From contig JAVZJR010000003.1 of the NCBI GenBank assembly GCA_038870635.1, positions 4,880 to 68,879 of the forward strand: a DNA stretch of 64,000 bases. Reading direction: 5' to 3'. The notes beneath the pieces were generated by a model, which made no database searches, was not told the DNA's origin, and was given only the letters and a program-made list of their open reading frames with translations. The position numbers and the translations under genes were made by a program. Source of the DNA: Candidatus Bilamarchaeaceae archaeon. Its GTDB lineage: Archaea > Micrarchaeota > Micrarchaeia > Anstonellales > Bilamarchaeaceae. This document shows, piece by piece, positions 5,295 through 45,294 of this stretch (the stretch's first letter is position 1; each line of letters begins with the position of its first letter).

Positions 5295-6584
5295 ATGAGA
5301 GTAACATTTTACGGTGGTGCAGAAGAAGTTGGAAGAAGTTGCATTGTGCTTGAGCACAATCGCTCTAGAATAATGTTAGATTGCGGAATAAAGCTAGGGG
5401 AAAAAGTGGAAACACCACTCATCAGCGATGACGAGTTGAAAAGGATAGATAATATAATAATAACACATGCTCATCTTGATCACAGCGGCTATTTACCCCA
5501 CGTCTGCTCAAAAGGAACGAATGCAAAAATCTACTTGACAAAACCAACCCACGACTTAATGGGCGTCTTGCTCGCTGATTATTACAGAATACAAAAATCA
5601 AAAAACGAATTATCTTTTTCAATGAATGATGTCAATAAAGTAATGCAAAAAAGCACTATGATAGAGTACAACGAAAAGGTCGAAGGCGAACTAAAATTTG
5701 AACTTCGAAACGCTGGCCACATATTAGGGAGTGCAATGGTCTATTTTCCAGAAAACAAAATACTCTACACTGGGGATATCTGCATGCGAAAGACAAGAAT
5801 ACTTGACAGATGCGATGTTGGGCTAAAAGCAGAAACATTGATAGTCGAGTCAACATATGGAAATAAAAAAGATATCTTGCCACCCTTAAAAGAATCTGGC
5901 CAAAAACTCGCAAAGATAATAAACGAAACCATTGACAGAGGAGGGCATGTCTTGATACCGAGCTTTGCAGTTGGCAGAGCGCAGGAAATCCTTTTACTTC
6001 TTGACGATTATATGCGCTCAGGCGCCATTAGTGAAGCGAAAATATACGTAGATGGAATGATAGGAAAGGCGATGAAAATATACAGGCATAATGCAATATA
6101 TGCAAACGATGATATAAAGAGAAGAATCCTAATGAGTGAGGACGATCCATTCAAAAGCAAGAGGTTCCACAAGCCAAGAAAAAAAGATAGAAGCGATGTT
6201 TTGACAGAACCATCAATAATCATATCAACATCTGGCATGCTCACCGGAGGACCAGTTTTATACTATCTTGAAAAGCTTCACGAAAATCCCGCAAACTCTT
6301 TGGTGTTTGTAGGTTATCAGGCGCCAGGTACTTTAGGTAGTAAAATACTTGAAGGCGAAAGAGTAATCAAGATAGGTGATAAAGAGATAGAATTAAATAT
6401 GAAAATTGAGCGAGTGAAGATATCTGGTCATGCTGATTACAATGAACTTCTCCAGTTTATAAGAAGCACACCAGACTTGAAAAGAGTATTCATAATTCAT
6501 GGTGAAAAAAGCGAGTTAAAAGATGCTTTGGAGAAGAAATACGAAGTTATAACGCCGCGGCTTCTTGAAACCTATGGTTTTTAA
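5295..6584 (+). CDS. beta-CASP metallo-beta-lactamase ribonuclease, second aCPSF2-type paralogue
   Basis: 'THAHLDHSG', 'NAGHILGS', 'YTGD', 'ESTYG', 'SGHADYNEL', 'IHGE'; 429 aa; SD 'GTGAGAGG' upstream. Confidence 0.85.
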   Translation: MRVTFYGGAEEVGRSCIVLEHNRSRIMLDCGIKLGEKVETPLISDDELKRIDNIIITHAHLDHSGYLPHVCSKGTNAKIYLTKPTHDLMGVLLADYYRIQKSKNELSFSMNDVNKVMQKSTMIEYNEKVEGELKFELRNAGHILGSAMVYFPENKILYTGDICMRKTRILDRCDVGLKAETLIVESTYGNKKDILPPLKESGQKLAKIINETIDRGGHVLIPSFAVGRAQEILLLLDDYMRSGAISEAKIYVDGMIGKAMKIYRHNAIYANDDIKRRILMSEDDPFKSKRFHKPRKKDRSDVLTEPSIIISTSGMLTGGPVLYYLEKLHENPANSLVFVGYQAPGTLGSKILEGERVIKIGDKEIELNMKIERVKISGHADYNELLQFIRSTPDLKRVFIIHGEKSELKDALEKKYEVITPRLLETYGF

Positions 6585-12158: not shown

Positions 12159-12344
12159 GGGGGATCAATAAATACATTTAGTAAATATATTTAAACTTTT
12201 CGTCGGTTTGGTTTTGAGAGTGTATAATAGTGGTAATTTGCGTTTATATTTTTTAGACGAAAAAGAAAATATTTTTAAATAAAAAAAATACCTTCTTCTC
12301 ATCCTCGTTATATTTACGAGGAAAAAAGCGACCAGGTGAAAAAT

Positions 12345-13424
12345 ATGGAAGATTTGGTAAAATCTGTTATGGGAGAAAGTACCTCCCAGGTTAAGGATGA
12401 GAGTGAGAGCTTGAGCTCAGAGACGATTAAAATCGTCACTGTCGGTGTCGGTGGTGCCGGAAACAACACTATAAATAGGTTGATAAAAGCAGGTGTTAAA
12501 GGCACAGAGCTAGTAGCCATTAACACAGACAAGCAGCACTTGAGCATAATACACGAGAGAGCAAAAAAGATTTTAATAGGTAAGAGCGTGACAAAAGGTC
12601 TTGGTGCTGGTGGATACCCTGAAATAGGTGCAAAATCAGCAGAAGTCGACAGACCATTAATAGAAAAAGAGCTCGAAGGAGCACACCTTGTTTTCGTATG
12701 CGCTGGTATGGGCGGCGGAACAGGTGGCGGGGCAGCACCAATAGTTGCACAAATAGCAAAAGAACAAGGTGCAATCGTTGTTGCGATGGTAACTTACCCA
12801 TTCGCACTTGAAAGAGCAAGAAAGAAAAAAGCAGATGAAGGCATAAAATTGCTCAAAAAGAGCTGCGACTCAGTCATTATATTAGATAACAACAGATTAG
12901 TGCAATTAGTTCCAAACTTGCCAATGACAGAAGCATTTGCAGTTGCAGACGAAATTTTAGCAAGAGCGATATCTGGTCTTGTTTGGACAATTACCCAACC
13001 ATCACTCATCAACATTGACTTTGCAGATGTGCGCGCTATTATGGAAGGCGGCGGAGTTGGATTTATAGCAGTAGGTGAAGGAAAAGGAAATGATAAAGTA
13101 AGAGCAGCTGCAGAAGGAGTTATAAAGAACAGATTGCTCGACGTTGATTTCGAAGGTGCTAAGGGTGCACTTATACACATAAGTGGTGGAAGCGACCTCA
13201 CACTCGGCGATGCAATAAAAGCAGGTGAGTTAATAACAGAGAAGATGGATGCTGAAGCAAATGTTAAGTGGGGCGCAAGAATAATGCAAAACTACGAAGG
13301 CAAACTCGAGATAGTGGCCATAGTAACTGGTGTTAAAGGCGCATCAGTTGGTGGCGCTCAATTCAGCCAAGAAGAAGAAACAAGCGCACCTATATATGGT
13401 GAAGAACTCGAAGTACTTGGTTAG
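12345..13424 (+). CDS. ftsZ: cell division GTPase FtsZ
   Basis: '[13 protein letters not shown]' and tubulin signature '[15 protein letters not shown]'. SD AGGTGA sits before ATG 12345 (the track starts at GTG 12336). Confidence 0.92.
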
Positions 13425-13453
13425 TTTTTTCTTTTTTTCTTTTTTTGATTTTT

Positions 13454-14248
13454 ATGCAGTATAGCGACCTCGTTAACGATATTCAAAAATTATCTTACGA
13501 GATGGTTTTTCCTTTAATTCCTTTTTTCTTAGTGAATTTTTTTAATATGGAAATAAAATATGGCGTAGAGGCTGCCATATTAATAGAAGTAGTTAGTCTC
13601 ACGGTTTTTGTTTTAACTATTTTTATAAGACAGCGCTTCAAAAAAAATGCAAGTCCATTAGGGCTTGCGACAGCAGCCATAGCACGATGGTTTTTGGCAG
13701 GAGCACAAAGCACTTTGGGCATGTTTACTTATAGAATAGCAGAATATGTTGGTTTAGGAATAGCAGAAAAAAGCACGCAAAATCTTAAAATTCACAGAAG
13801 TGCAATGATCACGGGACCATTACTTACTTTATTCCTTGTTATTTTTATTGAGGTAAAAACAATAATAACAATCTCTGCTTTTGTATTAGGATGCGCATTT
13901 CTTTTATCTTTATTTTTAAAAAAAGAAAAAGAGGAAACCTATCTGGCCCAAAACAATCTTCTTAAAACGATTATACCAATTTTGCTTGTATTTATTTTTT
14001 TAGCATTTGAAACGCTTTCAGCGCCCCTATTTTTCTTACCTCTTTTTTATATCGCTTATCAAACATTTCGTATCTTGATGGGAAAACGCCTCGCAAATTT
14101 TCTAAGAAAAGAAAGCAGTCGAACGACTGTTAGTATAATCGCGATTATTCTTTCGTTATATTTTCTTTTTTCTTCTACTCTATTGACAATGCACATATTA
14201 GCTTTTGTCTTACTTGGAATTTTTACTGCTATGTATGAAAATGGATAA
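13454..14248 (+). CDS. hypothetical polytopic membrane protein
   Basis: Multiple hydrophobic helices; no family recognised; ATG 13454 preferred over TTG 13445. Confidence 0.55.
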   Translation: MQYSDLVNDIQKLSYEMVFPLIPFFLVNFFNMEIKYGVEAAILIEVVSLTVFVLTIFIRQRFKKNASPLGLATAAIARWFLAGAQSTLGMFTYRIAEYVGLGIAEKSTQNLKIHRSAMITGPLLTLFLVIFIEVKTIITISAFVLGCAFLLSLFLKKEKEETYLAQNNLLKTIIPILLVFIFLAFETLSAPLFFLPLFYIAYQTFRILMGKRLANFLRKESSRTTVSIIAIILSLYFLFSSTLLTMHILAFVLLGIFTAMYENG

Positions 14249-14287
14249 AATTTTAAATACACGCTCTTTAATATTCTCGGTGAAAAA

Positions 14288-14689
14288 ATGTTAGGAATGG
14301 TTGGGATAAGGCTTCTTGACGGAAGTGTAAAGATAAAAGAAGACACGCCACCCAAAGGGCTTGCAATCGATTTAAAGATAACGAAGATAAGCAAAACTGA
14401 AAGGCCAGAGCTTGCGAATGTAAAGTTTTCTTATACAGTCTCATACACGCCAAATACAGCAGTGCTTAAGCTTGAGGGAGACGCGTTATTTACTGATGAA
14501 CCAGCTGTCCTAGAAAAAATAATAACATCTTGGAAAGAAAAGGAAAGAATAGATGAAGAAATAGCAGCGCGAATACTTAATTTCATAAATCCGTTTGTAA
14601 CACACAATGCCTTACTTATGCTCCGCGCGTTTAACCTTCCGCCACATATATCCCCGCCTCCGATAATACCACAGAAAAAAAGCAAATAA
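14288..14689 (+). CDS. hypothetical protein (133 aa)
   Basis: SD GGTGA upstream; Pro-rich C-terminus 'LPPHISPPPIIP'; no confident family. Confidence 0.5.
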   Translation: MLGMVGIRLLDGSVKIKEDTPPKGLAIDLKITKISKTERPELANVKFSYTVSYTPNTAVLKLEGDALFTDEPAVLEKIITSWKEKERIDEEIAARILNFINPFVTHNALLMLRAFNLPPHISPPPIIPQKKSK

Positions 14690-14700
14690 AGTGATAATAG

Positions 14701-15423
14701 ATGGAACTAAAAAGTGTTTTTGCAGCATATGGTGAAAAACCACTACTTTTCTTATGGGGGTCATTGCTTTACGTTTTTTTCTCTCTTATAGTTTTACTTT
14801 CAACTATTGGCATTCTTCTTGTCTCATTCTTGCTGCTTTTCTTTTTTGGATACTTACCTAATTTTGATACACCTCTAAATCTAATACTATATGCCCTACC
14901 AACAACAATAGCATTGCTCTTTATGTTATACATGAACGGATGCATCACCGCAGCAACTATTTATGCTTACAAAAATGCCACGAATGGCACTGCAATCTCT
15001 CTAATAGATTTTTATCACTACGGTCTATCCCGCGGTCCGATGATGTTCTCTATAGGAGTACTAAGGGATTTCTTTATGTTTATCGTAATAGGAGTAGGGG
15101 CTGCGATTTATTATTATGGATTGCAGGGATTTGAGTATGGCACCCATATACTAGTAATTTATACTCTTATGGTTCTCTTCGTGTTCCATCTTATTACAAA
15201 ACCAGGAATAATTGCTTGTGGTCTTGGTGAACGTCCATTTGAAAGTTTTAAGAAAACCTATCTTGTTTTTGCAAAAAAACATATTTATTTTATAGTGTTT
15301 TTTACAATGTATGCCTTTGTTTGGCTAATGAATTTTATTCCAATTTTGCAGTTTATTTCTCTCTTTGTACTCTTCCCTCTTTCATATAGCGCATTGATAA
15401 AAATGGTTGAAGAGATAAGGTGA
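14701..15423 (+). CDS. hypothetical polytopic membrane protein
   Basis: 240 aa with about 6 hydrophobic helices; SD GTGAT upstream. Confidence 0.6.
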   Translation: MELKSVFAAYGEKPLLFLWGSLLYVFFSLIVLLSTIGILLVSFLLLFFFGYLPNFDTPLNLILYALPTTIALLFMLYMNGCITAATIYAYKNATNGTAISLIDFYHYGLSRGPMMFSIGVLRDFFMFIVIGVGAAIYYYGLQGFEYGTHILVIYTLMVLFVFHLITKPGIIACGLGERPFESFKKTYLVFAKKHIYFIVFFTMYAFVWLMNFIPILQFISLFVLFPLSYSALIKMVEEIR

Positions 15424-15428
15424 TTTTT

Positions 15429-15737
15429 ATGGATAGATTATACGAAATCGCTTTAGAAAAAAGGGCACAGTTAACTAAAATACTAGAAAACGAGCCTTAT
15501 GCTCCTGATAGTTTTGCCCGCGTGGGCTATCGTATTAGGGATGGTGCAACATTGGAAGAAGATAAAACTAAAATTTATTTATTCATATCATCTTCAGAAG
15601 AATTCGTAAAAAAAGCAGATGATAGATTAAAAGATGTTGCAGTCGTTGTCGAAGGTGAAAAGGCTTCACGCATAATTTCAAAAATAAAAGCAGAAGAAGA
15701 AGCCGCGGAGAGTGGGTTTGGCTCACTTTTCGGCTAA
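15429..15737 (+). CDS. small protein with a ribosomal stalk (aP1/P1-P2)-like C-terminal tail
   Basis: 102 aa ending 'KAEEEAAESGFGSLFG'; SD AAGGTGAT lies 5 nt before ATG 15429; the N-terminal part does not resemble canonical aP1. Confidence 0.55.
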   Translation: MDRLYEIALEKRAQLTKILENEPYAPDSFARVGYRIRDGATLEEDKTKIYLFISSSEEFVKKADDRLKDVAVVVEGEKASRIISKIKAEEEAAESGFGSLFG

Positions 15738-15815
15738 TTTGTTTTTTTTACTCTTTTTTATACTAACATACACATTTATAAATAGAATTATGTTTAATAA
15801 TTATTAGGGGTTGAG

Positions 15816-18800
15816 ATGAAATATAAGTTTAATTTATTAACTACGAAAGATTTAAATAAACTAAACAATACTAATTATAAGTCGAGATGTTTCTCGATAA
15901 AGTATCCGCGGCTCTCAAAAGCAATTGCTGCTGGATTAGGTTTATGGTTAATGTTAGAGGGTGTTATTATGCCTATAGGCGGTGGTGTTTATGGAAAATT
16001 TGGAAAAGAGGTTTATGCGCAAACTCCAAAGAAAGTTGACCCATACGACGAATTAATTGAATCGTTGAACCAAATAATAAAGGAAAATGAAAAAATAAGT
16101 AAAGAATTGAAAGAAGGGACGGCGATACCACTTTACTTAAACAGTAAAAATGGGAAAAATATATTAACTAGATTAGAAAAAGCCGGTTTTGAAGTAAAAG
16201 ACGGTAAAGTATTATACAAAGGAAAAGAAGTATATACATTATCTAAGGACAAGAAAGGACGCTATTATATAGGGGATATTAATGAGTTTACAAATGAAAT
16301 TGTAGTCATATATAATAAAGAACAAGCAAACATGGCAATTGAAAACATAGAAAAAGAAGAAAAAAATAAGCCTACTGCTGTAGCTGTAACTCCTGTTAAA
16401 GAAAAATCACAAATAGAAAAATCACAAATACGTGAAAAAACGGCAGAAGAGAAAGAAAGTATAAATAAAATAAACAAGTATTGGAGCACCGTTTTAGGCA
16501 ATTGGGTTGCATACTACTACCAGACAACTAATAGAATAAAAGAAGAAATAAAAAAAGAAATAGGATATTTAAAAGCGCAGAAAAGTGAAAAAAAACTTAG
16601 TAAAAAAGAAATAGAAGAACTCAATAATAAAATAAATAAACTTGAAGAGAAACTTACAAAAATCGATGATGATTACATAAAATTGAAGAAAGAAATTGAA
16701 CAAAAAAAGAAAGAAGGATATTATACTGAAGAAGACATAAACAAACTAGCAAACATTCTATTAAAAGATTCTCCTCAATTAGAAGAATTTAATAAGTTGG
16801 CTTACCCTGAAAAACTCTCATTCCTAGAACAACATCTCTTTTATGTGTTACATCTTCAAAGTGAAGCAATTAATTCCTACTTAAAACAAGTAGACACACC
16901 TACAAAAGATCTTTTATATGTTTTAGATATTATAAATAAACAAGAACTAGAAGGTTATTCATTAAACAATATTTTAGGAATACGTCTGCTTTTAGCTGCA
17001 ATTAATGATAGAGATCTAGAGAGAAATATATCCAATGCCAAAGAGTACTACGACCAACATAAAGATAAAGGAGAAAAGTACAGAAATATAGCTGAAATAG
17101 AAAAAACCCGATTAGAAGGAATAAAAGGACTTATAAAAGAAAATGAACTCTACAACAAAGCATTAGAGATTACAAAAAACACTTTCGGTGAAAATAGCGA
17201 ATTTTATAAAAATGCGAACAGTAAGTTGGTTGGCGATAAAAAAATAATAGCATACACACTCTTGTCAATTTGTGAATTAAAGAATCTCAATGATTTGAAA
17301 AAAAATACACAAGGATTTCGCTTGGAATTGGCAATTGAACATTTCAACAAGCTCTTTATACCAAGCATGAAAAGCGAGCAGATAAAGAGATTTGAAATGG
17401 CGGGGTATGATATGAAAGAAGATCCTTTATTATTTAATCCTTATGCTGCTCTAGTAATAGCAAATGTTGGTATAGCGCAAATAATGGGAGGATCAAGATA
17501 TATTGATTTAGTAGCTTACTTAAATCGCCATGACCAAATACAAGATGTGCATGCAGTGATAACTTACATATTGGAGAAAGGAGGCATTGCGTACCCATTC
17601 ATATATCAAAATCCTATACTTACAAATGACGATGTGGGTGTTACATTTCTTACAAAAATAATAGATGAGAATAATGAAAAGTTTAATAAATATGTTGGGG
17701 GAATAGACCAATCTTTTTACCCAAATCTCATAACAGATAATAAGAATAGGCAACACAATCCTTACATAGGGTCACCCATCGAAATTATTGAAAGCTACTC
17801 ACCAAATTATATAAAAAGGAAAATATTTCCCCAATTTTTAACCCATCGAAATAATGATAGATATGAAGTAGAGTACAAGAGGTTCAATAATAGACAAAAC
17901 TACCCTGATGAAAGAAAAAAAGAAGACATACTATCACTACTAACACCTACTGAACAACTTTTAGCATTTGAAGCACCGCAGTCAATATTAGCTCCTCCAC
18001 CCACAAAAATACCACCGTCAACAACAGCAAGATTCGAAAGATTATATGTACTCCCAACGCAATTTGAAATGAAAATTGGCGAAAGTGGATTTTATTATAA
18101 TGGTGTACCGTCTCCGAGCGCAATACAAAAAGTTGGGGAAGAAGGCGCAGAGGCGTTAATTAGGGCATTGGTATATGGTTTAAATGTAAAAGAGACGGGC
18201 GATGTTAAAAATGCCGCAGATAATATAATAAATGAACTTAACAAATGGCAACCAAAAAGTGATGAGGAAAAAAAAATTAAGGATGATATAATAACACAAC
18301 TTCAAAACGCAAAAACGCCGGAAGAATTAAGAGCAGCCATAATCAAACTCCAACAAAAAGAACTCGGCATAGATTTTTTAAGTTCTATTTGCTCTTATCA
18401 GTGGGAGGGAAATACACTCCGTATAAGAAATTTGTATGGATTTGAAGTCAACATTAATATGAATGTAACTAAGGAAGAGATAAAAAAAGAATTAGGTGAA
18501 AAATATATAAATTTAATAAGTATTCCAGCAGGATTAGCAGGAAGGATTGGTTTAGCCTATTCACAAATAGCCGGTACTTTAATTGAAGAAAAACTTATTG
18601 ATTTTAATGAAAAGAACGAACCTGTTTTTGAACCGACTGGCAAAACAAAAAGAGCGATTATGAGTGAATGGGAGGTATATTTAAATGGTATATATAATTT
18701 CTTAGCATTCAAAGCGCCAGCTGTCTTGGGTGGGGTTGGATTGGTTCAAGTAAATGTAGATATTAATCTTGACAAACAATCGTTAGAAAGAACAATATCT

Positions 18801-19280
18801 GATAATAAGTTTGATTTTGATAACTGGTTATTCTCTAGTAATATAAGTGTTTCTATTGATTTTCCATTTGGTGAAGGTTTCTTCATAAGAAGATTAGAAT
18901 TAGGTTATCTCAATCCAATATTTATAACACAAGAAGGAAAAATGCAACTAACAGAGAATCCATTCGGAAGCATAACATTCGGATATAAAGAAAAGTTAGG
19001 AAATATACCTCTTGAAATTTATGTTACTCCAACCTATCTAATTAATACAAAGGAACTTATACTATCTTCCCTCATACGAGCACTAATTCCTGTTGGTAAA
19101 AACTGGGGGATTATACCCACTTTGGGATCGAGCTATGATTTTAGAGATGGTCGTCTAAATGCTAATTTTGAACTACCTTTACAATGGGGGATATTTAAGT
19201 TGGGACCGTCGGTAGGAATAGAATATAAAGGCGAAAACATTAATTTCAATATATTAATAAAAGGTGAGGTTAATTTTTAG
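15816..19280 (+). CDS. giant ORFan envelope protein (1154 aa): N-terminal anchor, coiled coil, beta-rich C-terminus
   Basis: Long uninterrupted ORF; hydrophobic 'AIAAGLGLWLMLEGVIMPIGGGV'; K/E-rich heptad-like region; Pro-rich linker 'APPPTKIPPS'; amphipathic beta-strand pattern to the final Phe. Confidence 0.8.
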   Translation: MKYKFNLLTTKDLNKLNNTNYKSRCFSIKYPRLSKAIAAGLGLWLMLEGVIMPIGGGVYGKFGKEVYAQTPKKVDPYDELIESLNQIIKENEKISKELKEGTAIPLYLNSKNGKNILTRLEKAGFEVKDGKVLYKGKEVYTLSKDKKGRYYIGDINEFTNEIVVIYNKEQANMAIENIEKEEKNKPTAVAVTPVKEKSQIEKSQIREKTAEEKESINKINKYWSTVLGNWVAYYYQTTNRIKEEIKKEIGYLKAQKSEKKLSKKEIEELNNKINKLEEKLTKIDDDYIKLKKEIEQKKKEGYYTEEDINKLANILLKDSPQLEEFNKLAYPEKLSFLEQHLFYVLHLQSEAINSYLKQVDTPTKDLLYVLDIINKQELEGYSLNNILGIRLLLAAINDRDLERNISNAKEYYDQHKDKGEKYRNIAEIEKTRLEGIKGLIKENELYNKALEITKNTFGENSEFYKNANSKLVGDKKIIAYTLLSICELKNLNDLKKNTQGFRLELAIEHFNKLFIPSMKSEQIKRFEMAGYDMKEDPLLFNPYAALVIANVGIAQIMGGSRYIDLVAYLNRHDQIQDVHAVITYILEKGGIAYPFIYQNPILTNDDVGVTFLTKIIDENNEKFNKYVGGIDQSFYPNLITDNKNRQHNPYIGSPIEIIESYSPNYIKRKIFPQFLTHRNNDRYEVEYKRFNNRQNYPDERKKEDILSLLTPTEQLLAFEAPQSILAPPPTKIPPSTTARFERLYVLPTQFEMKIGESGFYYNGVPSPSAIQKVGEEGAEALIRALVYGLNVKETGDVKNAADNIINELNKWQPKSDEEKKIKDDIITQLQNAKTPEELRAAIIKLQQKELGIDFLSSICSYQWEGNTLRIRNLYGFEVNINMNVTKEEIKKELGEKYINLISIPAGLAGRIGLAYSQIAGTLIEEKLIDFNEKNEPVFEPTGKTKRAIMSEWEVYLNGIYNFLAFKAPAVLGGVGLVQVNVDINLDKQSLERTISDNKFDFDNWLFSSNISVSIDFPFGEGFFIRRLELGYLNPIFITQEGKMQLTENPFGSITFGYKEKLGNIPLEIYVTPTYLINTKELILSSLIRALIPVGKNWGIIPTLGSSYDFRDGRLNANFELPLQWGIFKLGPSVGIEYKGENINFNILIKGEVNF
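16401..16430 (+). repeat. perfect 2 x 15-nt in-frame tandem duplication (EKSQI EKSQI)
   Basis: 'gaaaaatcacaaata' occurs twice back to back. Confidence 0.9.
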
Positions 19281-19290
19281 GTGAGCACGG

Positions 19291-20757
19291 ATGTTTGATG
19301 AAAAAGTTGAAAATGCATTATGGGTTGTTGATGTAGCAAAAGGGAAGAAGAAACCAGCAACGCTTGAAGAGTGGTTAAAAGTTGTGATATATTCCACTAA
19401 AATACTGCGTTTGTACGACATAAGCGGAAAACTAAATGGCTGGGCGAGATATGTTTTTGATAAGACAAACGCAACATTGGAAAATAAGGCAAAAATACTC
19501 TTGCGTACTATACGAAAAGAAGCACTTTCACAGATACTTTCCCATTCACCTGAAGAAATAAAAGCAATTAGAAACTCTCTTAAAGAAGAGTACATTTCAA
19601 CAAGGGTCATAGACTTTGAACCAGAGATAAGAGAAAACTTTTACACACTACTAAATATTTTCTTAAGCGATACTTCATTAAAATACTACAAACTTGCTCT
19701 TGCAAATCCTGCGCCGGTAAATGTACTTATAAATGATATAGGATATATGTTAATAATAATAGACAATTATTACCTTCCTATAGAAACAATAAATGAATTT
19801 GAAAACGAAAATGACGCATATGCTTTCTTCGCAAACTTTTTGATGCTCATCCTTTATGCAAAAGAGAAAAAAATATTTGAAGCAGATGTATTAATAAATG
19901 ACAAAATAGCATCAAAATATGTAAAAGAATGTTATAGAATATTTTCAAAAAGCATAAAAGATGAGAAAAAATCAGGAATAGCAGAACTAATACGCTCTGG
20001 GAATATTTGGGATGCTGTTGGAGAATTGCAAACTTATGAATCCTTCTATTCAGCATTTAAACAAATGCATAACATAAATCTTGTTTCATTTGCGTACGGA
20101 GAGATAAAAATAACTTCTTTTGTAGCGGAAATAACACTGTCAGTTGATAAGTACGGACTTGAAAAAATGGCAGATATATTTGAGAAAAATAAAAATTCAA
20201 CAAAAGGGTACTTTACTGGAATTTTCTACTTAAACGCTGCGATACAAGATTATTTAATAGATAGAAGAGTTTACCTCTCAAGAGAACTCGACCCAATCCT
20301 CCCAGACGGAGTAGGTTGGGCACTTCCCCTAAAAATAAAATTTGAGTGCACGGCAGATTGGAAAACCATCGTACCATTAAACAAACCTGCTTATCTTTTT
20401 GGTATAAAAAATGCGTATATTGAAACCATGGATAATAAATTTATTTCAGTAAGAAAAGCACCAGAAGATTTTGAAATAGACCCAGTAAATGGTAGCATAG
20501 CAAAAATAGAAGTTTACTCGACAGAAGAAGAGAATGACTTATTTAAAGGGAATATTATGTTCATACCAGAATTTTTAGGATTGCTATCCAACCTTATGTT
20601 AAAAGGAAGAATAGATGAAAGCATAGTTAACACCCTAAATCTAAACCCAGCGTATAGGAAATTTAATTTTATATCAGAAAAAGGTAAAATTGGAATTGAC
20701 GGGCATTTCACAGGATATATAACTGCAGAAACAAAAACAGGAGGTTTGAAAAAATGA
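19291..20757 (+). CDS. ORFan protein (488 aa), no signal peptide
   Basis: SD AGGTGA upstream; 10-nt gap from the upstream gene and an ATGA overlap with the downstream gene; no family recognised. Confidence 0.75.
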   Translation: MFDEKVENALWVVDVAKGKKKPATLEEWLKVVIYSTKILRLYDISGKLNGWARYVFDKTNATLENKAKILLRTIRKEALSQILSHSPEEIKAIRNSLKEEYISTRVIDFEPEIRENFYTLLNIFLSDTSLKYYKLALANPAPVNVLINDIGYMLIIIDNYYLPIETINEFENENDAYAFFANFLMLILYAKEKKIFEADVLINDKIASKYVKECYRIFSKSIKDEKKSGIAELIRSGNIWDAVGELQTYESFYSAFKQMHNINLVSFAYGEIKITSFVAEITLSVDKYGLEKMADIFEKNKNSTKGYFTGIFYLNAAIQDYLIDRRVYLSRELDPILPDGVGWALPLKIKFECTADWKTIVPLNKPAYLFGIKNAYIETMDNKFISVRKAPEDFEIDPVNGSIAKIEVYSTEEENDLFKGNIMFIPEFLGLLSNLMLKGRIDESIVNTLNLNPAYRKFNFISEKGKIGIDGHFTGYITAETKTGGLKK

Positions 20758-23123
20758 AAAAAATAATATTTTTGTTTTTTTTGTTAACAGTATTTTTTGC
20801 TACTGAAAACTCTATTAGAATTCATTACCACAGCCAATATGAAACATCAGATGTTATTACAAATCAGAAATTTGTCGCAGATTTAAAAGAATGCACAATA
20901 ACTGGAAAGGTTATAGAAGGTGATCCATGCAAAGCAGGCATTTCAAAAGTATGTAAAAACACCGTTATTACATATACGCCTCGGATTGTTGGGTTGTGGG
21001 GAGATAACAACAACTATATTACAACAACTTTGCCAAATTGTTTTTGCAAAGCACCAGCGGGCTCTGGTCTTCCAGATAGACCATCATACTGTGATCCAAA
21101 CACAAAAACATGTTCATGTACTGTGGAGGGGTATACTCTTTATTGTCCTGAGAATTACTTAGTTGATTACAACACTGATAATAGAGTACTAATTGCTTGG
21201 TTACCAGAAAGCATTTATAATAAATATGATGTAGAGCATCATGGTTATGCTGAGCAAACAATTTGGTCAGGTTATGCAGCTGGAAAACAAATACTCCAAC
21301 TTTATAAAGAACTTGGACCAAATAATTATCACGCACAAACAATAGATAGATACGATGCAACTTTCACTACATATTATAACAAAAAAGGATATGCAGCAGT
21401 ATTTTGCAAAGGAAAGTATGAAATGAAAGAAGGAAATAATATAATAAGAAGCGGAGAGATGCCAATCCAAGAAGGTCTACCCCAAAGAATTTTGATTTTA
21501 AACAATGTTGGGACAACAGCGACATTTAGTTCAAAACTTTATGGTCTTGATTGTTTTGCTTCTGTTATAAGGCATCCAAAAGATGATGACTACCTTTATG
21601 GTTTTGAAATACAATTTAATGGTTATAAAGTACCACCAATTTCTAATGTAGAAGACATTCACCAAATTGAAGTTGTCGATATAAAATCATCTATGGAGAT
21701 TATAAGCACAGAAGTAATAGCAAAAGATGGAAGCGGCAATTATTTACTTAAAACAATTGTAAAAAACACAGGTGATGTAAGAATAAAGATAAATGAAACA
21801 AAAGCAGATTATTTACCAAATTCAGGAGCAACACCAATGGATAGACAACTATGTAATTTAATCTTCGGACCAAATCCACCAGCAGAATGCAATTATCCAA
21901 ATGGATATAATTCATATTTTAATCCTGGTGAAGAAAAAACGCTTTATACATTATACCTTTATCAAGGAGAATCCAAAGAACTCTGCGATGTTTCAATTAT
22001 GAGATTAAGTTATACATCCGACCAACCAACTTGCTCGCAATATGATAAATGGTGGGCAGCGGTTAATGGACCGTGTATAACCGAACCTATAAAATATCCG
22101 CCAAAATGCGAGGTAAAACCAAAAGAGAATACCATTAATCCTCTTGAGATTCACGAATGGACGGTTAGTTGTTTTGATGAGAATAATAAAGCAGTAGCGT
22201 GTGTAGGTAATAATTGGAGATGGGAAGGAATAAAAGGTGATTTCGTAACAAAAACAAATGAAAAAGCATTAGCGTATTCAACTGCAACTAGTAAAGTAAG
22301 TGGTAAAATAGTTTATAGACAAGGTGAAATAAATTGCAGTGCAAATGTAACAGTTGATCCGCGCTCTCTTCCACAATTTGTTTGTATGCTTGAGCCATCA
22401 TCTGCAGAAATGGTTGTTAATGAAACTAAAAATTTTGACTTAAAATGTATATTTAGAGACGAAAGCGGCTCTTCAAAAGAAACAAAGCCTCAAAAAGCAG
22501 ATTATGCAGCAGTCGAAGGGCTCATAGGAAAAGTCGAGCCATATCCACGCGATCCAACAAGTGGTGTAACCTTTAATGCAACTGACGTAAGCGCAGGAAA
22601 ACTTAGAGGAATAGGTTATTACACAACACCTTTGGACCCAACATTAAGAGGAGCGATTGCCTTTTCATCAATAAATGTTGGTGCTGGTGAATTACAATGC
22701 GGTGAAAACGAGACGCTGGTTTGCCACCTTGAAGAGATAGAACTTCCATTCGGAGGCAGTACATTTATAGTTATATGCGAATGTGTGCCAAAAGAAGATA
22801 ACGAGGAAGAAGACAAGTCAAATATGGAGTGCGTTATAAGCCCACCAAATCAAAGGATATCACCATTACAACCTGGATTAGCAACTGTGAGTTGCTATGA
22901 TAAGCAAACTTGGAGCAGGGTAGAATGTGGCAGCGATATAACCTGGTCAATAAATGAGAACCTAGCGACATTCAAAGATAATACTTATGGAAAAACAAAT
23001 GTTGTATTCAATGCAAAACCAGGCGCTACTGGCGAGGGGTTCTTAAACGCCAAAGTAGGCGATAATGTAAGATGCGAGGCCAAATTCCTCGTTTCTCCAT
23101 ACACATGCTTAGAAATCAGCTAA
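20754..23123 (+). CDS. secreted Cys-rich ORFan (789 aa) with a CARDB-like segment and three Cys-framed Ig-like modules
   Basis: Signal-like N-terminus 'MKKIIFLFFLLTVFFA'; SD AGGAGGT; 'TIVKNTGDVRIKI' CARDB-like segment; three repeated modules of about 90 aa at aa 451-781. Confidence 0.8.
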   Translation: MKKIIFLFFLLTVFFATENSIRIHYHSQYETSDVITNQKFVADLKECTITGKVIEGDPCKAGISKVCKNTVITYTPRIVGLWGDNNNYITTTLPNCFCKAPAGSGLPDRPSYCDPNTKTCSCTVEGYTLYCPENYLVDYNTDNRVLIAWLPESIYNKYDVEHHGYAEQTIWSGYAAGKQILQLYKELGPNNYHAQTIDRYDATFTTYYNKKGYAAVFCKGKYEMKEGNNIIRSGEMPIQEGLPQRILILNNVGTTATFSSKLYGLDCFASVIRHPKDDDYLYGFEIQFNGYKVPPISNVEDIHQIEVVDIKSSMEIISTEVIAKDGSGNYLLKTIVKNTGDVRIKINETKADYLPNSGATPMDRQLCNLIFGPNPPAECNYPNGYNSYFNPGEEKTLYTLYLYQGESKELCDVSIMRLSYTSDQPTCSQYDKWWAAVNGPCITEPIKYPPKCEVKPKENTINPLEIHEWTVSCFDENNKAVACVGNNWRWEGIKGDFVTKTNEKALAYSTATSKVSGKIVYRQGEINCSANVTVDPRSLPQFVCMLEPSSAEMVVNETKNFDLKCIFRDESGSSKETKPQKADYAAVEGLIGKVEPYPRDPTSGVTFNATDVSAGKLRGIGYYTTPLDPTLRGAIAFSSINVGAGELQCGENETLVCHLEEIELPFGGSTFIVICECVPKEDNEEEDKSNMECVISPPNQRISPLQPGLATVSCYDKQTWSRVECGSDITWSINENLATFKDNTYGKTNVVFNAKPGATGEGFLNAKVGDNVRCEAKFLVSPYTCLEIS

Positions 23124-23126
23124 CTC

Positions 23127-23140
23127 TTTTTTAATTTTTT
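23127..23140 (+). terminator. oligo-T terminator candidate after operon 1
   Basis: Two T6 runs (23127-23132 and 23135-23140) directly after the stop at 23123. Confidence 0.5.
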
Positions 23141-23161
23141 AAAAAACATCATAGTTTGGGT

Positions 23162-23345
23162 GAGCGTAAGCCTTTGCCCTTGTAATACAGAAGTCAAAGG
23201 CTTCGTAAGAAGCCAAGAAAACAGGAGAAAACATAAAACGGCTGCGGTGGCCGATGAAAACATAAGTCCACCGCACATAGAAAACAGAAAGTATAACAGA
23301 GAAAACAGTAAGAAGCCAAGAAAACAGTAAGAATACCTAAAAACG
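23162..23345. repeat. conserved GC-stemmed noncoding element, copy 1 (candidate ncRNA)
   Basis: Near-identical to 44352-44580 apart from one indel; stems 23168-76/23195-203 and 23243-50/23268-75; six GAAAACA heptamers. Confidence 0.8.
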
Positions 23346-25830: not shown

Positions 25831-27729
25831 TTGCACTACAAAGATATAGTCAAGAAAGTAGAAGAGCTTATGCCAAAAGAATGCGGTATAACAAAAATAG
25901 AACCAGAAGGACTTGCAATAGTTGTGTACATAAAAAATGTAGAGGCTTTTTACAACAATATAACCTTAATAAAAGACCTTGCAAATGCGATAAAAAAGAA
26001 GGTATTAGTGAGAACAGATCCAAAATATTTAATGCAGATAGAAAAAGCCAAAAACGAAATAGAAAAACTTATCCCACAAGAGGCAGGAGTAAAAAAAATA
26101 GTATTTGTACCAGAAATGTCAGAAGTGCACATAGAAGCTATAAAATCAGGTTTAGTCATAGGTAAAGGGGGAGCTCTACTAAAAGAAATAATGATAAAAA
26201 CAGGTTGGGCGCCAGTGGTCGAGCGAGCCCCCACTATGCCTTCAGTAACACTCGATGGCGTAAGAAAAATAAGTAATGAAGGTGCAGAAGAAAGAAAAAA
26301 ATTCCTTCTTGAACTTGGTAAAAAGATATGCCATCCATCACCAACAAGCGAATGGATAAGAGCGGTGTCTTTAGGTGGTTTCGGTGAGGTTGGCAGGTCT
26401 TGTCTTCTTATCCAAACACAACACAGCAAAATACTCATAGATGTCGGTGTAAACGCAGCCACAAGCGACCCTGCAAAAGCCTATCCTTATCTTAATATGC
26501 TTGGTTTTTCTCTAAATGAAATAGATGCAGTAGTTATAAGTCACGGACATATGGACCACATGGGTTTTCTTCCTTACCTTTATGCATACGGCTATGATGG
26601 CCCGGTTTATTGCACTGCCCCAACTAGAGACATAATGGTGTTATTGCAACAAGATTACATAAATCTATGCAAAGGGTCTTTTGGTATAGAACCACTTTAT
26701 AGCAAAAAAGACATACAAAAAGAATTAAAGAAAACAATAGTTGTTGATTACGGAGAAGTAGTAGACATCACACCAGAAATAAAGATGACTTTATACAATG
26801 CAGGCCACATACTTGGAAGCGCAAGTATTCATCTCCATATAGGAGATGGATTATACAACTTAGTCTACACTGGGGATATAAAGTTCGGTTTTACGCGTCT
26901 TTTTGAACCAGCACAAGTTAGGTTTCCGAGATTGGAAGCACTTTTTATAGAGAGCACTTACGGTGGACGCAACGATACAACAATAAACAGACATGAGAGT
27001 GAGAATAAATTAATGGAAGTCATAATGCAGACAGTTGAAAAAAGAGGAAAGGTACTCATACCTGTTTTTGCAGTTGGTAGAAGCCAAGAAATATTGTTAG
27101 TTTTAGAAGAATACAGCAGAAAACATCCAGAATTTAATATACCAATATATATCGATGGAATGGTATTAGAAGCTTCTGCAATACATACCGCTTATCCTGA
27201 ATTTATGCGGGAGCAGGTTCAAAGAAGGATACTCTCGGATAGAAGTCCTTTTGAATGCCCTTTAATAAAAGTCGCAAAAGGACCAGATAGAGATAGTATT
27301 GCAAATAGTGAAGAAGGTGCGATAATATTAGCGCCATCAGGTATGCTTGCTGGTGGCCCATCATTAGAATACTTAAAAATGATGTGTGATGATGAAAAAA
27401 ACACCCTCATATTTGTTGGTTATCAAAGCACACTTTCAATTGGATATAAAATTCAAAACGGTATGAAAGAAGTGCCTATAATAGGAGATGACGGAAGAAC
27501 AAAACTACTCAATATAAATATGAGAGTTGAAACCGTAGAAGGTTTTTCTGGACATAGTGATAGAACACAACTCATGGCTTATTTAAGAAATCTTAAACCG
27601 ACTCCTGAAAAAATTATCACGATGCATGGCGATTTAGGAAAAACCGAAGATCTTGCTCGTTCTGCTGCTATGATGCTAAGAAAAGATGGTCGAGCTCTAA
27701 TGAATCTAGAAGCCATTAGATTGAGATGA
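25831..27729 (+). CDS. aCPSF1 (two KH domains plus MBL/beta-CASP ribonuclease)
   Basis: N-terminal KH region 'GLVIGKGGALLKEI'; 'SHGHMDHMG', 'NAGHILGS', 'YTGD', 'ESTYGG', 'SGHSDR', 'MHGD'; 632 aa; TTG start with SD GAGGTG. Confidence 0.9.
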   Translation: MHYKDIVKKVEELMPKECGITKIEPEGLAIVVYIKNVEAFYNNITLIKDLANAIKKKVLVRTDPKYLMQIEKAKNEIEKLIPQEAGVKKIVFVPEMSEVHIEAIKSGLVIGKGGALLKEIMIKTGWAPVVERAPTMPSVTLDGVRKISNEGAEERKKFLLELGKKICHPSPTSEWIRAVSLGGFGEVGRSCLLIQTQHSKILIDVGVNAATSDPAKAYPYLNMLGFSLNEIDAVVISHGHMDHMGFLPYLYAYGYDGPVYCTAPTRDIMVLLQQDYINLCKGSFGIEPLYSKKDIQKELKKTIVVDYGEVVDITPEIKMTLYNAGHILGSASIHLHIGDGLYNLVYTGDIKFGFTRLFEPAQVRFPRLEALFIESTYGGRNDTTINRHESENKLMEVIMQTVEKRGKVLIPVFAVGRSQEILLVLEEYSRKHPEFNIPIYIDGMVLEASAIHTAYPEFMREQVQRRILSDRSPFECPLIKVAKGPDRDSIANSEEGAIILAPSGMLAGGPSLEYLKMMCDDEKNTLIFVGYQSTLSIGYKIQNGMKEVPIIGDDGRTKLLNINMRVETVEGFSGHSDRTQLMAYLRNLKPTPEKIITMHGDLGKTEDLARSAAMMLRKDGRALMNLEAIRLR

Positions 27730-29914: not shown

Positions 29915-30007
29915 ATGAAAATCTTTAGGGCAGATGAAGAAGAAGATTGGGAAGATGAAGAAGATGAAGAAGACTGGGAAGAAGAGGAAGAGGAAGAAGA
30001 GTTCTAA
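29915..30007 (+). CDS. 30-aa poly-acidic micropeptide MKIFRADEEEDWEDEEDEEDWEEEEEEEEF
   Basis: Not in the ORF track (too short). ATG is preceded by AGGTGATCC, the longest SD match I saw in the window; the ORF is in an otherwise empty intergenic region. Confidence 0.4.
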   Translation: MKIFRADEEEDWEDEEDEEDWEEEEEEEEF

Positions 30008-30101
30008 ATAACATAATTTTTATTTATTTTTCCTTATTTTTCAACCCAGGTTTAGAAAGCTTACCGTTCTGTTTAAAAAATCTGTGTTAGTAAATATAAT
30101 T

Positions 30102-30881: not shown

Positions 30882-31120
30882 GGTGAGGGGAGAACAGCTT
30901 ACCGGTTTTCACCGGAGGAAGTTCTGTCCACGGGAGGCTGATGCTCTTAAGGAGCGGAAAATGTAATAGAAACGATACCCTACGGGGATGAAACGGACAT
31001 TTTCCAGCCTTTGACCGTGCAAGGCCATTTGGCCGCTTTTCAGGCTAAAACCTGAAACCCGATAGATTCGGTGTAGTATAATGCTGTTTAAAACAGAAGA
31101 CAGGCTACTTCCCTCACCAT
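30882..31120 (+). ncRNA. rnpB: RNase P RNA (compact archaeal form)
   Basis: GC-rich island. P1 closes GGTGAGGG.../...CCCTCACC. CR-I-like 'GGAGGAAGTTCTGTCC' and CR-V-like 'ACAGAAGACAGGCTAC', with the long-range P4 pairing TTCTGT/ACAGAA; 'GATAGAT' CR-IV-like. Confidence 0.75.
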
Positions 31121-44294: not shown

Positions 44295-44351
44295 TTATGG
44301 AGCAAAGTTTTCAGATAAATTAGTAGTATAGTTAAAAACCAGTTTTAAAAC

Positions 44352-44580
44352 GAGCGTAAGCCTTTGCCATCGATAGCTATGCTATCGAGCTGTAAACGTA
44401 TAGACGTTTACACAAGGAGATGATAGAAGTCAAAGGCTTCGTAAGAAGCAAAGAAAATAGGAGAAAACATAAAACGGCTGCGGTGGCCGATGAAAACATA
44501 AGTCCACCGCACATAGAAAACATTAGAAATACAGAGAAAACAGTAAGAAGCAATGAAAACAGTAAGAATAACTAAAAACG
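44352..44580. repeat. conserved GC-stemmed noncoding element, copy 2 (with a net ~46-nt two-hairpin expansion)
   Basis: Aligns with 23162-23345; extra perfect hairpins CGATAGC/GCTATCG (44371-87) and GTAAACG/CGTTTAC (44392-411) lie inside the stem-A loop; abuts the tRNA-Arg 3' end. Confidence 0.8.
44574..44578 (-). terminator. T5 run after tRNA-Arg
   Basis: A5 on the plus strand directly after the discriminator base; it lies inside repeat copy 2. Confidence 0.4.
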
Positions 44581-44678
44581 GGCCTGGCAGGATTTGAACC
44601 CACAACCGCCTGGTCACTCCTACAATCAGGAGAGTGCATCCGAAGCCAGGCGCTCTATCCAAGTTGAGCTACAGGCCC
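44579..44678 (-). tRNA. tRNA-Arg(UCG) with a 25-nt intron at position 37/38
   Basis: Minus-strand read GGGCCTG-TA-GCTC..GAGC-G-CCTGG-CTTCGG[intron]A-CCAGG-CGGTT-GTGGG-TTCAAAT-CCTGC-CAGGCCC-G; the T-stem needs two G-U pairs. Confidence 0.8.
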
Positions 44679-44712: not shown

Positions 44713-45294
44713 TTATCTTTTTTCAATAAAATTCATTACAAGAGGTATAAGGTAAAATGTTGCGGCAAAACCAGCAAACGCACCAGTTAAAAATCGGATA
44801 GTATTCGTACTTTCATAGTGGCCTACTAAATTTAATACACCAAGAAGTTGAAGCCCACCATCTATAGCCAATGGTATTAGTGCTAAAATAAAATAAATAG
44901 GCGGAAGAACCTCATCGCTGTCCCATTTTCTTAAAAGCGGATAGATAAATGCGGCAATCAGCATCATTCCATATATACCAGTATCACGAGAACAAAAAGC
45001 GATTTTGTATCCAATTTTACCTTCGTATTCTGTTTTTATTATCTTATTATCATTAGGTATGAATTTACCTAGCTGGGGTGTGCAATCTCCTATATTAAGT
45101 GGGTTGTCATCAAATACACAAAATGAACGAGAAATTTTTTGATGGCAAGTGGGCGCATATATTTCATATATCATATTTGCAATTTTTTCATCTTTAAATG
45201 CCACGAAAGGGGCTAAAAAAGCCCCACCAACAAATCCTATTAATAAAATAACATATGAGATGTAAAATAATTTTTTTATAGTTTTTTTATCCAT
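44713..45294 (-). CDS. DUF2085 membrane protein
   Basis: 'APTCHQKISRSF' and 'AFCSRDTGIYG' Cys motifs plus TM helices. Confidence 0.7.
   Translation of the reverse strand: MDKKTIKKLFYISYVILLIGFVGGAFLAPFVAFKDEKIANMIYEIYAPTCHQKISRSFCVFDDNPLNIGDCTPQLGKFIPNDNKIIKTEYEGKIGYKIAFCSRDTGIYGMMLIAAFIYPLLRKWDSDEVLPPIYFILALIPLAIDGGLQLLGVLNLVGHYESTNTIRFLTGAFAGFAATFYLIPLVMNFIEKR

Follow-up and report, generated by a model that had tools for sequence, protein, structure and literature searches.

A modular family of tandem hairpin repeats beside stable-RNA genes in Candidatus Bilamarchaeaceae

What kind of element is a 184-nt stretch of non-coding, GC-stemmed DNA that occurs twice within one AT-rich archaeal contig, and which of its strands would be the functional one? 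The element lies at positions 23162-23345 of a 64,000-nucleotide stretch (contig JAVZJR010000003.1 of assembly GCA_038870635.1, positions 4,880 to 68,879; here called the window, from whose first letter positions are counted), which has a GC content of ~35% and whose proteins are annotated as Candidatus Bilamarchaeaceae, within the Micrarchaeia (DPANN). A preliminary description, made from the sequence of the window alone, regarded it as a candidate structured noncoding RNA (ncRNA) of fixed size lying behind operons of giant genes without known homologues (ORFans). We find instead that it belongs to a modular tandem-repeat family specific to this lineage, of which it is one copy, and that the arrays of this family abut the 3' ends of tRNA and 5S rRNA genes at most of the loci in the species. 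We interpret them tentatively, at a probability of about 0.4, as tandem terminator or trailer arrays for stable-RNA genes, read on the T-rich (minus) strand.

Architecture and variation of the array

Both copies in the window are real and lie in the same orientation on the plus strand. Copy 1 (23162-23345) and copy 2 (44352-44580) share a 98-nt core with 98% identity and a 50-nt block with 94% identity, and the difference between them is a single insertion of 44-46 nt within the loop of stem 1. The landmarks first described were all at their correct coordinates on re-checking. Stem 1 is formed by AAGCCTTTG (23168-23176) and CAAAGGCTT (23195-23203), stem 2 by TGCGGTGG (23243-23250) and CCACCGCA (23268-23275), and copy 1 includes six GAAAACA heptamers (at 23217, 23227, 23256, 23280, 23301 and 23320) along with a 20-nt duplication found at 23205 and 23308. 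Copy 2 has five heptamers. The whole window contains 39, compared with 20.5 +/- 4.5 in shuffled sequences, and 11 of the 39 fall within the ~410 nt of the two copies. Likewise, the 31-nt hairpin core occurs exactly twice in the window and not once in 100 shuffles. The possibility raised earlier that the second copy is an assembly duplication is ruled out, because both loci recur with their own distinct flanks in several independent metagenome-assembled genomes (MAGs).

The notion of a fixed 184-nt element did not survive the comparison of strains. The element is a modular tandem array in which the number of 103-nt units ranges from 1 to at least 4 among MAGs of one Candidatus Bilamarchaeaceae species. 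Each array consists of an optional stem-1 module, n units of 102-103 nt, and a terminal partial repeat, R', and at all loci the units are direct repeats arranged head to tail. The stem-1 module (GAGCGTAAGCCTTTGCC ... CAAAGGCTTCG) exists in a short form and in a form with a 44-nt insertion of two perfect hairpins. The unit comprises an A-rich linker R (GTAAGAAGCCAAGAAAAYAGGAGAAAACATAAAAC), a GC hairpin of 35-36 nt and an A-rich tail (CATAGAAAACA...ACAGAGAAAACA), the hairpin being of type H1 (GGCTGCGGTGGCCGATGAAAACATAAGTCCACCGCA) or one of several H2 variants (..CTGCCGGCACCGMTGAAMACCGGRGTAACGGCA), while R' has the consensus GTAAGAAGC.A.GAAAACAGTAAGAATAMCTAAAAAC. The parts present in the window are listed below, with the strand of the favoured reading.

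23140..23145, minus strand: T6 run (A6 on the plus strand), read from the sequence, 16 nt past the stem-1 hairpin, where a minus-strand transcript may end
23162..23204, minus strand: stem-1 module of copy 1 in its short form (GAGCGTAAGCCTTTGCC, a small hairpin, CAAAGGCTTCG)
23205..23307, minus strand: the single 103-nt unit of copy 1, with linker R (GTAAGAAGCCAAGAAAACAGGAGAAAACATAAAAC) and tail (CATAGAAAACAG...ACAGAGAAAACA)
23243-23275: H1 hairpin of copy 1, within the 103-nt unit
23308..23345, minus strand: terminal partial repeat R' of copy 1 (GTAAGAAGCCAAGAAAACAGTAAGAATACCTAAAAACG); its minus strand starts CGTTTTTAGGTATTCTTACTGTTTTC
44334..44350, minus strand: T5 and T4 runs (A5 at 44334-44338, A4 at 44347-44350) directly past the stem-1 module of copy 2
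44352..44440, minus strand: stem-1 module of copy 2 in its long form, with the closing stem as in copy 1
44369-44412: 44-nt insertion in the stem-1 module of copy 2, with two perfect 8-9-bp hairpins
44441..44542, minus strand: the single 102-nt unit of copy 2, with its H1 hairpin at 44479-44511
44543..44578, minus strand: terminal repeat R' of copy 2; the minus-strand T5 run directly follows the tRNA discriminator base

The stem-1 module of copy 1 is present also at copy 2 and at two loci of another genome, L001 and L052 (such handles denote the further loci compared, with positions after a colon). L001 is the copy 1 locus in MAG GCA_038895595.1, where the array has the stem-1 insertion and a second 103-nt unit with a different GC hairpin. 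At the copy 2 locus there is one unit in L047, three in L046, and at least four in L050, where the contig ends. Unit 1 is identical at L001 and L052, which indicates concerted evolution between two loci of one genome. Directly past the stop codon of a pyrK-like gene (L052:9887-9962), the complete stem-1 module is preceded by an extra, truncated one, which contains the 44-nt double hairpin and the 3' half of stem 1 without the 5' half; modules therefore duplicate or recombine independently. As expected of a multi-copy repeat, many MAG contigs also end inside the array (L006, L007, L009, L010, L048-L051, and L053).

Loci, database relatives, and neighbouring genes

In this species four loci are found within the ~105 kb examined, three of the arrays lying in ~70 kb of contiguous sequence. 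The third locus, L052, was found by a search with a spurious gene-caller open reading frame (ORF) of the A-rich strand, and the fourth, L054, is situated 6.4 kb upstream of window position 1. The search of related MAGs recommended at the outset thus yielded further homologues, one of them in another species. This fifth locus, L017, belongs to a Micrarchaeota MAG with 46% GC and consists of a single unit with 81% identity to the window copies. It retains the 22-nt invariant linker block and the identical GCGGTGG/CCACCGC stems, and its hairpin loop differs yet keeps GAAAAC. The stem-1 module is missing from L017, whose flanks do not align to those in the window.

At three of the four loci in the species, a stable-RNA gene encoded on the opposite strand has its 3' end 0-1 nt from R':

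44579-44678, minus strand: intron-containing tRNA-Arg(UCG), the neighbour of copy 2 (Rfam RF00005, 52.9 bits; aligned to its L017 orthologue)
L052:10284-10398: 5S rRNA, the neighbour of the L052 array (RF00001, 85.6 bits)
L054:3552-3628: tRNA-Glu(CUC), the neighbour of the L054 array

The T-rich strand of the array is the strand of the RNA gene at all three of these loci, and the three 3' flanks, when aligned from the RNA ends, are in register (TTTT(T)AGTTATTCTTACTGTTTTC...). In the ~105 kb, only five genes for stable RNAs were detected. By our own estimate, which assumes that ~4.5% of intergenic regions are such flanks, the chance of finding at least three of four arrays at stable-RNA 3' flanks, as is seen here with all three in one orientation, is ~3e-4. 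This abutment to the 3' ends of RNA genes on the opposite strand points to the minus strand and not to a plus-strand ncRNA.

The tRNA-Arg(UCG) gene of the window (44579-44678, minus strand) has its intron after the anticodon loop and was missed by ARAGORN and detected by Rfam. Its orthologue (L017:7597-7731, plus strand) has a second intron, of 34 nt, in the T-arm and scores below the Rfam gathering threshold. The word AAAAGATAATC occurs ~35-45 nt upstream of both the tRNA-Arg (window 44713-44725 region, minus strand) and the tRNA-Glu (L054:3660-3675), and may represent a promoter-proximal element common to the two genes.

The association with giant-ORFan operons noted in the preliminary description proved not to be general: the L052 array follows the pyrK-like gene, and the L054 array faces the 5' end of a minus-strand gene. 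In the window, ftsZ and then six ORFan genes (up to 1154 aa, without Pfam domains) occupy 12336-23123, and this operon is conserved in Bilamarchaeaceae; the region was compared with L040:2230-12361, L043, L044, and L058. In the relative that has the conserved operon, and with it the sole homologue of the 789-aa ORFan (45% identity), the operon lacks the element; there the FtsZ-plus-ORFan operon is followed 57 nt on by a convergent gene. In closer relatives, as recognised by glutamine synthetase (GS), the ornithine carbamoyltransferase gene directly precedes the GS gene, which places the ORFan operon and copy 1 at a rearrangement junction, or synteny breakpoint. The link to giant-ORFan operons is incidental.

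The relative with the 45%-identical ORFan operon carries a different tandem array (L040:14990-15690 and L041:14990-15340). Its unit of 91 nt (CGCGGGCTTTTTTGCCCTTAGTGAAACAGTAAGCCAAAAAAGGGCG...CCTCAGGGTTTTTGGGTG) is present in at least 2.7 copies, with an internal assembly gap. The genes on either side encode a tRNA-splicing endonuclease and an AAA_14 ATPase, and Rfam detects no RNA gene in the vicinity. What this array has in common with the window element is limited to the word AACAGTAAG..CCAA.AAAA, and nhmmer found no homology between them.

The collections were scanned with the invariant 18-mer GAGAAAACAGTAAGAAGC. Among GTDB species representatives there was one true relative, L017, together with seven chance matches; IMG/VR gave no matches, and the 21 matches in JGI metagenomes were all due to chance. 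BLAST searches with the element against phages and plasmids revealed no similarity, and the loci of GS homologues with 67-79% identity are without the element. Judged by these 18-mer scans, whose sensitivity was limited, the BLAST results and the loci of GS relatives, the repeat family appears narrow. Within the window itself there are no matches of at least 14 nt to the element elsewhere that might serve as targets in trans. No Rfam family matches the element. With Rfam 15 at the gathering threshold, the only families found in the whole window were RNase P RNA and two tRNAs, and in E-value mode, up to E = 10, copy 1 and the expanded L001 array gave only chance-level matches (E >= 0.69). By eye, and without a dedicated tool, the consensus boxes or geometry of a kink-turn, C/D-box or H/ACA RNA, bulge-helix-bulge motif or glutamine riboswitch are absent, and Rfam is silent on them. 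A template or variable repeat of a diversity-generating retroelement was rejected, the copies being non-coding, their differences not specific to A, and no reverse transcriptase seen; a replication origin was rejected as there is no orc1/cdc6 gene nearby.

The archaeal RNase P RNA of the window (30882-31118) is short, 237 nt, and scores 87.4 bits against an Rfam gathering threshold of 84, which is consistent with a reduced RNA of the DPANN type. A tiny ORF at 29917-30008 encodes an extremely acidic peptide (MKIFRADEEEDWEDEEDEEDWEEEEEEEEF), and lies between a 430-aa ORFan and an ORF of ~200 aa whose 3' end overlaps the 3' end of tRNA-Ser.

Two further explanations can be weighed on the same searches. 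It seems to us exceedingly improbable that the element is a CRISPR-like array or belongs to a known RNA family that the searches overlooked. The 67-nt repeat with inserts of 35-36 nt has a superficial repeat-spacer look, and there is a weak match to CRISPR-DR27 (E = 2.8); however, the supposed spacers comprise only the two related hairpins H1 and H2, which recur at every locus, the period of 102-103 nt is far above the length of CRISPR repeats (about 23-47 nt), no Cas domain is found among the Pfam hits across the window and the flanking loci, and no Rfam match reaches the gathering threshold. We consider it very improbable as well that the plus strand carries a gene for a small basic protein, in ORFs of 51-65 aa (MIEVKGFVRSKENRRKHKTAAVADENISPPHIEN...), although the NCBI annotation and gene callers predict ORFs at copy 2 (44420-44575) and at L052. 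Stop codons break the frame in L017 and a 1-nt indel breaks it between copies 1 and 2. The element, as first described, is non-coding DNA with GC stems and without a conserved ORF. In addition, conservation is highest in a block that falls outside the ORF or in a different frame, the frame is closed in H2 units, and only three database proteins match, all of the same species. The minus strand is open in all frames because it is A-poor, yet it has no database match either, a search with the minus-frame pseudo-ORF having returned 0 matches in 1.8 billion representatives. With its frame conserved neither between the copies nor across species, the small ORF is effectively refuted.

Weighing terminator, ncRNA, and repeat-DNA readings

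The architecture of the array, its copy-number polymorphism, its multiple loci, its contact with the 3' ends of RNA genes and its conservation across species are observed. That the array is transcribed, that the T-rich strand is the one used, and that transcription ends there are what we infer in the reading of the array as a tandem terminator for stable-RNA genes. In this scheme, R' would supply the U-tract that ends the tRNA or 5S transcript. Polymerases reading through would then reach one or more 103-nt units, each with a GC hairpin followed by GUUUUAUGUUUUCUCCUGUUUUCUU, which gives several U4 tracts per unit, and last the strong stem-1 hairpin with its T4-T7 run. By analogy with termination by U4 tracts and aCPSF1 in Methanococcus, the array would act as a fail-safe, high-efficiency terminator and as an insulator that prevents strong transcription of the stable RNA from entering the convergent or downstream protein gene, and a U-rich trailer RNA might also be released after 3' processing.

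We favour termination and insulation because of the U-tract layout, the number of T4+ runs, the data from M. maripaludis and the nearby aCPSF1 gene. The minus strand of each window copy includes eight T4+ runs and the plus strand none, whereas the mean across the window is 3.2 +/- 2.2 per 180 nt. On the minus strand, U-rich sequence directly follows every hairpin. The oligo-T runs noticed earlier at the low-coordinate end of both copies were confirmed, the distal stem-1 hairpin being followed by T6 in copy 1, by T4 and T5 in copy 2, and by T5 and T7 in L052. Directly downstream of the RNA genes there are T5 (tRNA-Arg), T4 (tRNA-Glu), and T3AT3 (5S), so that the U4+ tract of archaeal terminators is found at this position. 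In M. maripaludis the efficacy of termination grows with the number of U4 tracts, and binding of aCPSF1 requires at least two of them (PMC8716108). An orthologue of aCPSF1 is encoded at window positions 25831-27729, 2.5 kb from copy 1. The terminator reading is further supported by L054, where the rule that the element follows a plus-strand gene fails, and by the 81% identity to L017 despite GC contents of 46% and ~35% and unalignable flanks. The window encodes three beta-CASP/metallo-beta-lactamase paralogues in 28 kb (295-1536, 5295-6584, and 25831-27729), which are 30-36% identical to one another, and the KH domains of aCPSF1/FttA occur only in the last of them.

Several observations weigh against a terminator. 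Copy 1 has no adjacent RNA gene and lies beside the GS promoter at the synteny breakpoint; we take it to be a displaced copy. The L017 array is ~55 nt upstream of tRNA-Arg, with its A-rich strand on the tRNA strand. In the window, tRNA-Ser and RNase P RNA end with a plain T5-T7 run only. The density of U4 tracts is high and yet not an outlier, as Lys-rich coding DNA has up to 12 per 180 nt. Folding energies favour neither strand, and the same is true of the G-U asymmetry; both copies fold better than shuffles on the plus strand (z = -3.9 for each), and on the minus strand z is -2.1 (copy 1) and -3.9 (copy 2). Finally, a terminator would not obviously need 81% conservation or a structured, expandable stem-1 module. 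On the same strand the array might rather be a dedicated, conserved 3' trailer module of tRNA and 5S genes, which would be co-transcribed and processed off to give an active RNA, structured and rich in U. This RNA might, for example, bind aCPSF1 or Sm-like proteins as their platform or sponge, or it might be a regulator that couples stable-RNA synthesis to the capacity for termination and processing. We hold this trailer function to be improbable; if true, it would be an archaeal counterpart of the eukaryotic Pol III oligo-U/La-type 3' ends or of bacterial 3' external transcribed spacer (3'ETS) sponge RNAs.

The original idea of a structured ncRNA, or of a 3'-untranslated-region element, can be extended to a plus-strand RNA which would start near GAGCG and contain the stem-1 junction at its 5' end, hairpins with GAAAAC loops, and purine-rich linkers with 4-5 GAAAACA each. 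Such an RNA might bind proteins multivalently, as a scaffold or sponge similar to CsrB/RsmZ. The GAAAAC word recurs in the linkers and in the loops of H1, of most H2 variants and of L017, though the loops differ otherwise. The A/T boxes reported upstream on the plus strand are present: the TATA-like block of copy 1 is ~24 nt before GAGCG, such boxes lie ~20-36 nt before GAGCG at three loci, and they are comparable to those before the tRNA, 5S, and RNase P genes of the host. Moreover, the plus strand is free of T4+ runs across the array, the A-rich strand is the coding strand of the upstream gene at four of five loci, the stem-1 module accepts its 44-nt insertion of two perfect hairpins much as an expansion segment would, and a hairpin with a GNRA (GUAA) tetraloop, GGCUUC-GUAA-GAAGCC, is possible on the plus strand only. 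However, at three loci the transcript would meet no terminator before running antisense through a tRNA or 5S gene, and the exact abutment of the arrays to the 3' ends of RNA genes would be unexplained. The stem-1 module is absent from L054 and L017, strains differ in unit number, and Rfam contains no relative. Covariation is minimal: there is one compensatory pair, G-C to C-G, which amounts to a single H1/H2 event, the eight distinct hairpin sequences have a common stem of only 5 bp, and 21 of 500 shuffles attained the observed covariation score, 0.107. A scanner for bacterial promoters and terminators was uninformative for an archaeon, and its loop limit misses H1. Thus, of the structured-ncRNA proposal, the non-coding nature, the GC stems and the lack of an Rfam family stand, whereas the genomic context points to the other strand, and we judge a plus-strand RNA unlikely. 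The GNRA hairpin (window 23199-23214, GGCTTC-GTAA-GAAGCC, 6 bp) and stem 1 are mutually exclusive because both use the same GGCTT; the alternative pairing might act as a switch, or might simply reflect the repetition of the word GTAAG..GCC.

Selfish or neutral interspersed repeat DNA, similar to the bacterial repetitive extragenic palindromes (REP), their bacterial interspersed mosaic elements (BIME) or the Staphylococcus aureus repeats (STAR), is a doubtful but possible explanation. Repeats spread and homogenised by recombination or gene conversion would gather at stable-RNA genes and rearrangement junctions as tolerated or preferred sites, and would have no dedicated role in the cell. There are several loci per genome, the unit number expands and contracts between strains, and the identity of unit 1 at L001 and L052 is what concerted evolution would produce. 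Modules are mosaic and partial (the truncated extra stem-1 at L052, none in L054 and L017), copy 1 sits at a synteny breakpoint, near relatives lack the family at the same loci, one relative has its different 91-nt array family, and MAG contigs break within arrays. On the other hand, neither a transposase nor a REP-associated tyrosine transposase (RAYT), integrase or reverse transcriptase occurs among the Pfam hits of the window and of the genes at the loci, and no target-site duplication was seen. The units are all direct and none alternates, identity stays at 81% between genomes that differ in GC content (35% and 46%), a 22-nt linker being invariant, and the arrays meet three different RNA genes at a precise, in-register junction, so that a selfish element would need an unusually specific insertion mechanism. 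An integrated mobile element with an attachment site at a tRNA gene was rejected separately, as there is no overlap between repeat and tRNA, the 21-kb interval separating the copies contains housekeeping genes (GS, proteasome, aCPSF1, RNase P RNA, thermosome), and there is no similarity to phages, plasmids or IMG/VR.

Comparison with known systems and wider meaning

The array is a new, lineage-restricted family of tandem hairpin repeats, its closest analogues are the bacterial REP/BIME and STAR repeats and the archaeal U-tract terminators, and it is distinguished by its precise placement behind tRNA and 5S rRNA genes. REP/BIME elements are described as GC-rich palindromes in mosaic intergenic arrays, often at the 3' ends of transcription units, with variable unit numbers and proposed roles in termination and in protection of mRNA 3' ends (PMC2817692, PMC3333891). 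The first of these sources describes the REPs of BIMEs as alternating in orientation, exceeding 100 copies per genome and associated with RAYT Y1 transposases (PMC2817692). Like the palindromes of Enterobacteria and Pseudomonas, which are imperfect and measure 20-40 bp, H1 and H2 are GC-rich hairpins, of 35-36 nt, in AT-rich intergenic DNA. In contrast, the units here are all direct and do not alternate, the 103-nt unit has a long A-rich linker, the host is an archaeon, the arrays abut stable-RNA genes, and no Y1/RAYT domain is seen among the Pfam hits. Four loci lie in the ~105 kb examined. The STAR elements of Staphylococcus aureus are described as interspersed intergenic direct repeats with lineage-conserved sequence whose loci expand and contract between isolates (PMC3532100). 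The Bilamarchaeaceae arrays behave similarly in being interspersed intergenic direct repeats whose loci expand and contract between strains. The two have no sequence relation, however, STAR consisting of short repeats and variable spacers, and STAR is not known to be linked to tRNA or 5S 3' ends.

Archaeal U-tract terminators, which depend on aCPSF1 (FttA), resemble the minus strand of the array with its dense U4 tracts directly behind genes. The known ones span tens of nt, form no conserved repeat family and need no hairpin, whereas the array is made of 100-430 nt of repeated, sequence-conserved units of hairpin plus U-tracts. Tandem terminators are known behind rRNA genes, such as T1-T2 of E. 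coli rrnB and the eukaryotic Pol I arrays of Sal boxes with TTF-I or of Reb1 sites. In these, repeated modules stop read-through of very strongly transcribed stable-RNA genes, and they are tied to rRNA operons only. Their placement is like that of the array, but the machineries differ, and the likeness implies no homology. The E. coli 3'ETS-leuZ sponge is a single short spacer of a tRNA trailer that acts by base pairing. Release of a trailer by 3' processing is conceivable for the array, although there is no complementarity of at least 14 nt to a target in the window. The sponge RNAs CsrB and RsmZ are bacterial, depend on CsrA and carry GGA motifs in loops and linkers. The element likewise has a repeated loop and linker motif, here GAAAAC on the plus strand, and we know of no archaeal protein that binds GAAAAC.

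Almost nothing is known of non-coding biology in DPANN archaea. A conserved repeat trailing tRNA and 5S genes would, if true, be a case of reinforced tandem termination or of trailer-derived RNA in archaea. A repeat family behind these genes would explain the fragmentation of MAGs and the synteny breaks at such sites, and its variable unit number would serve as a variable-number tandem-repeat marker for strain typing. Even if it is only selfish DNA, the family would still be new as an archaeal counterpart of REP/STAR-type elements, and its preference for these sites would be unusual.

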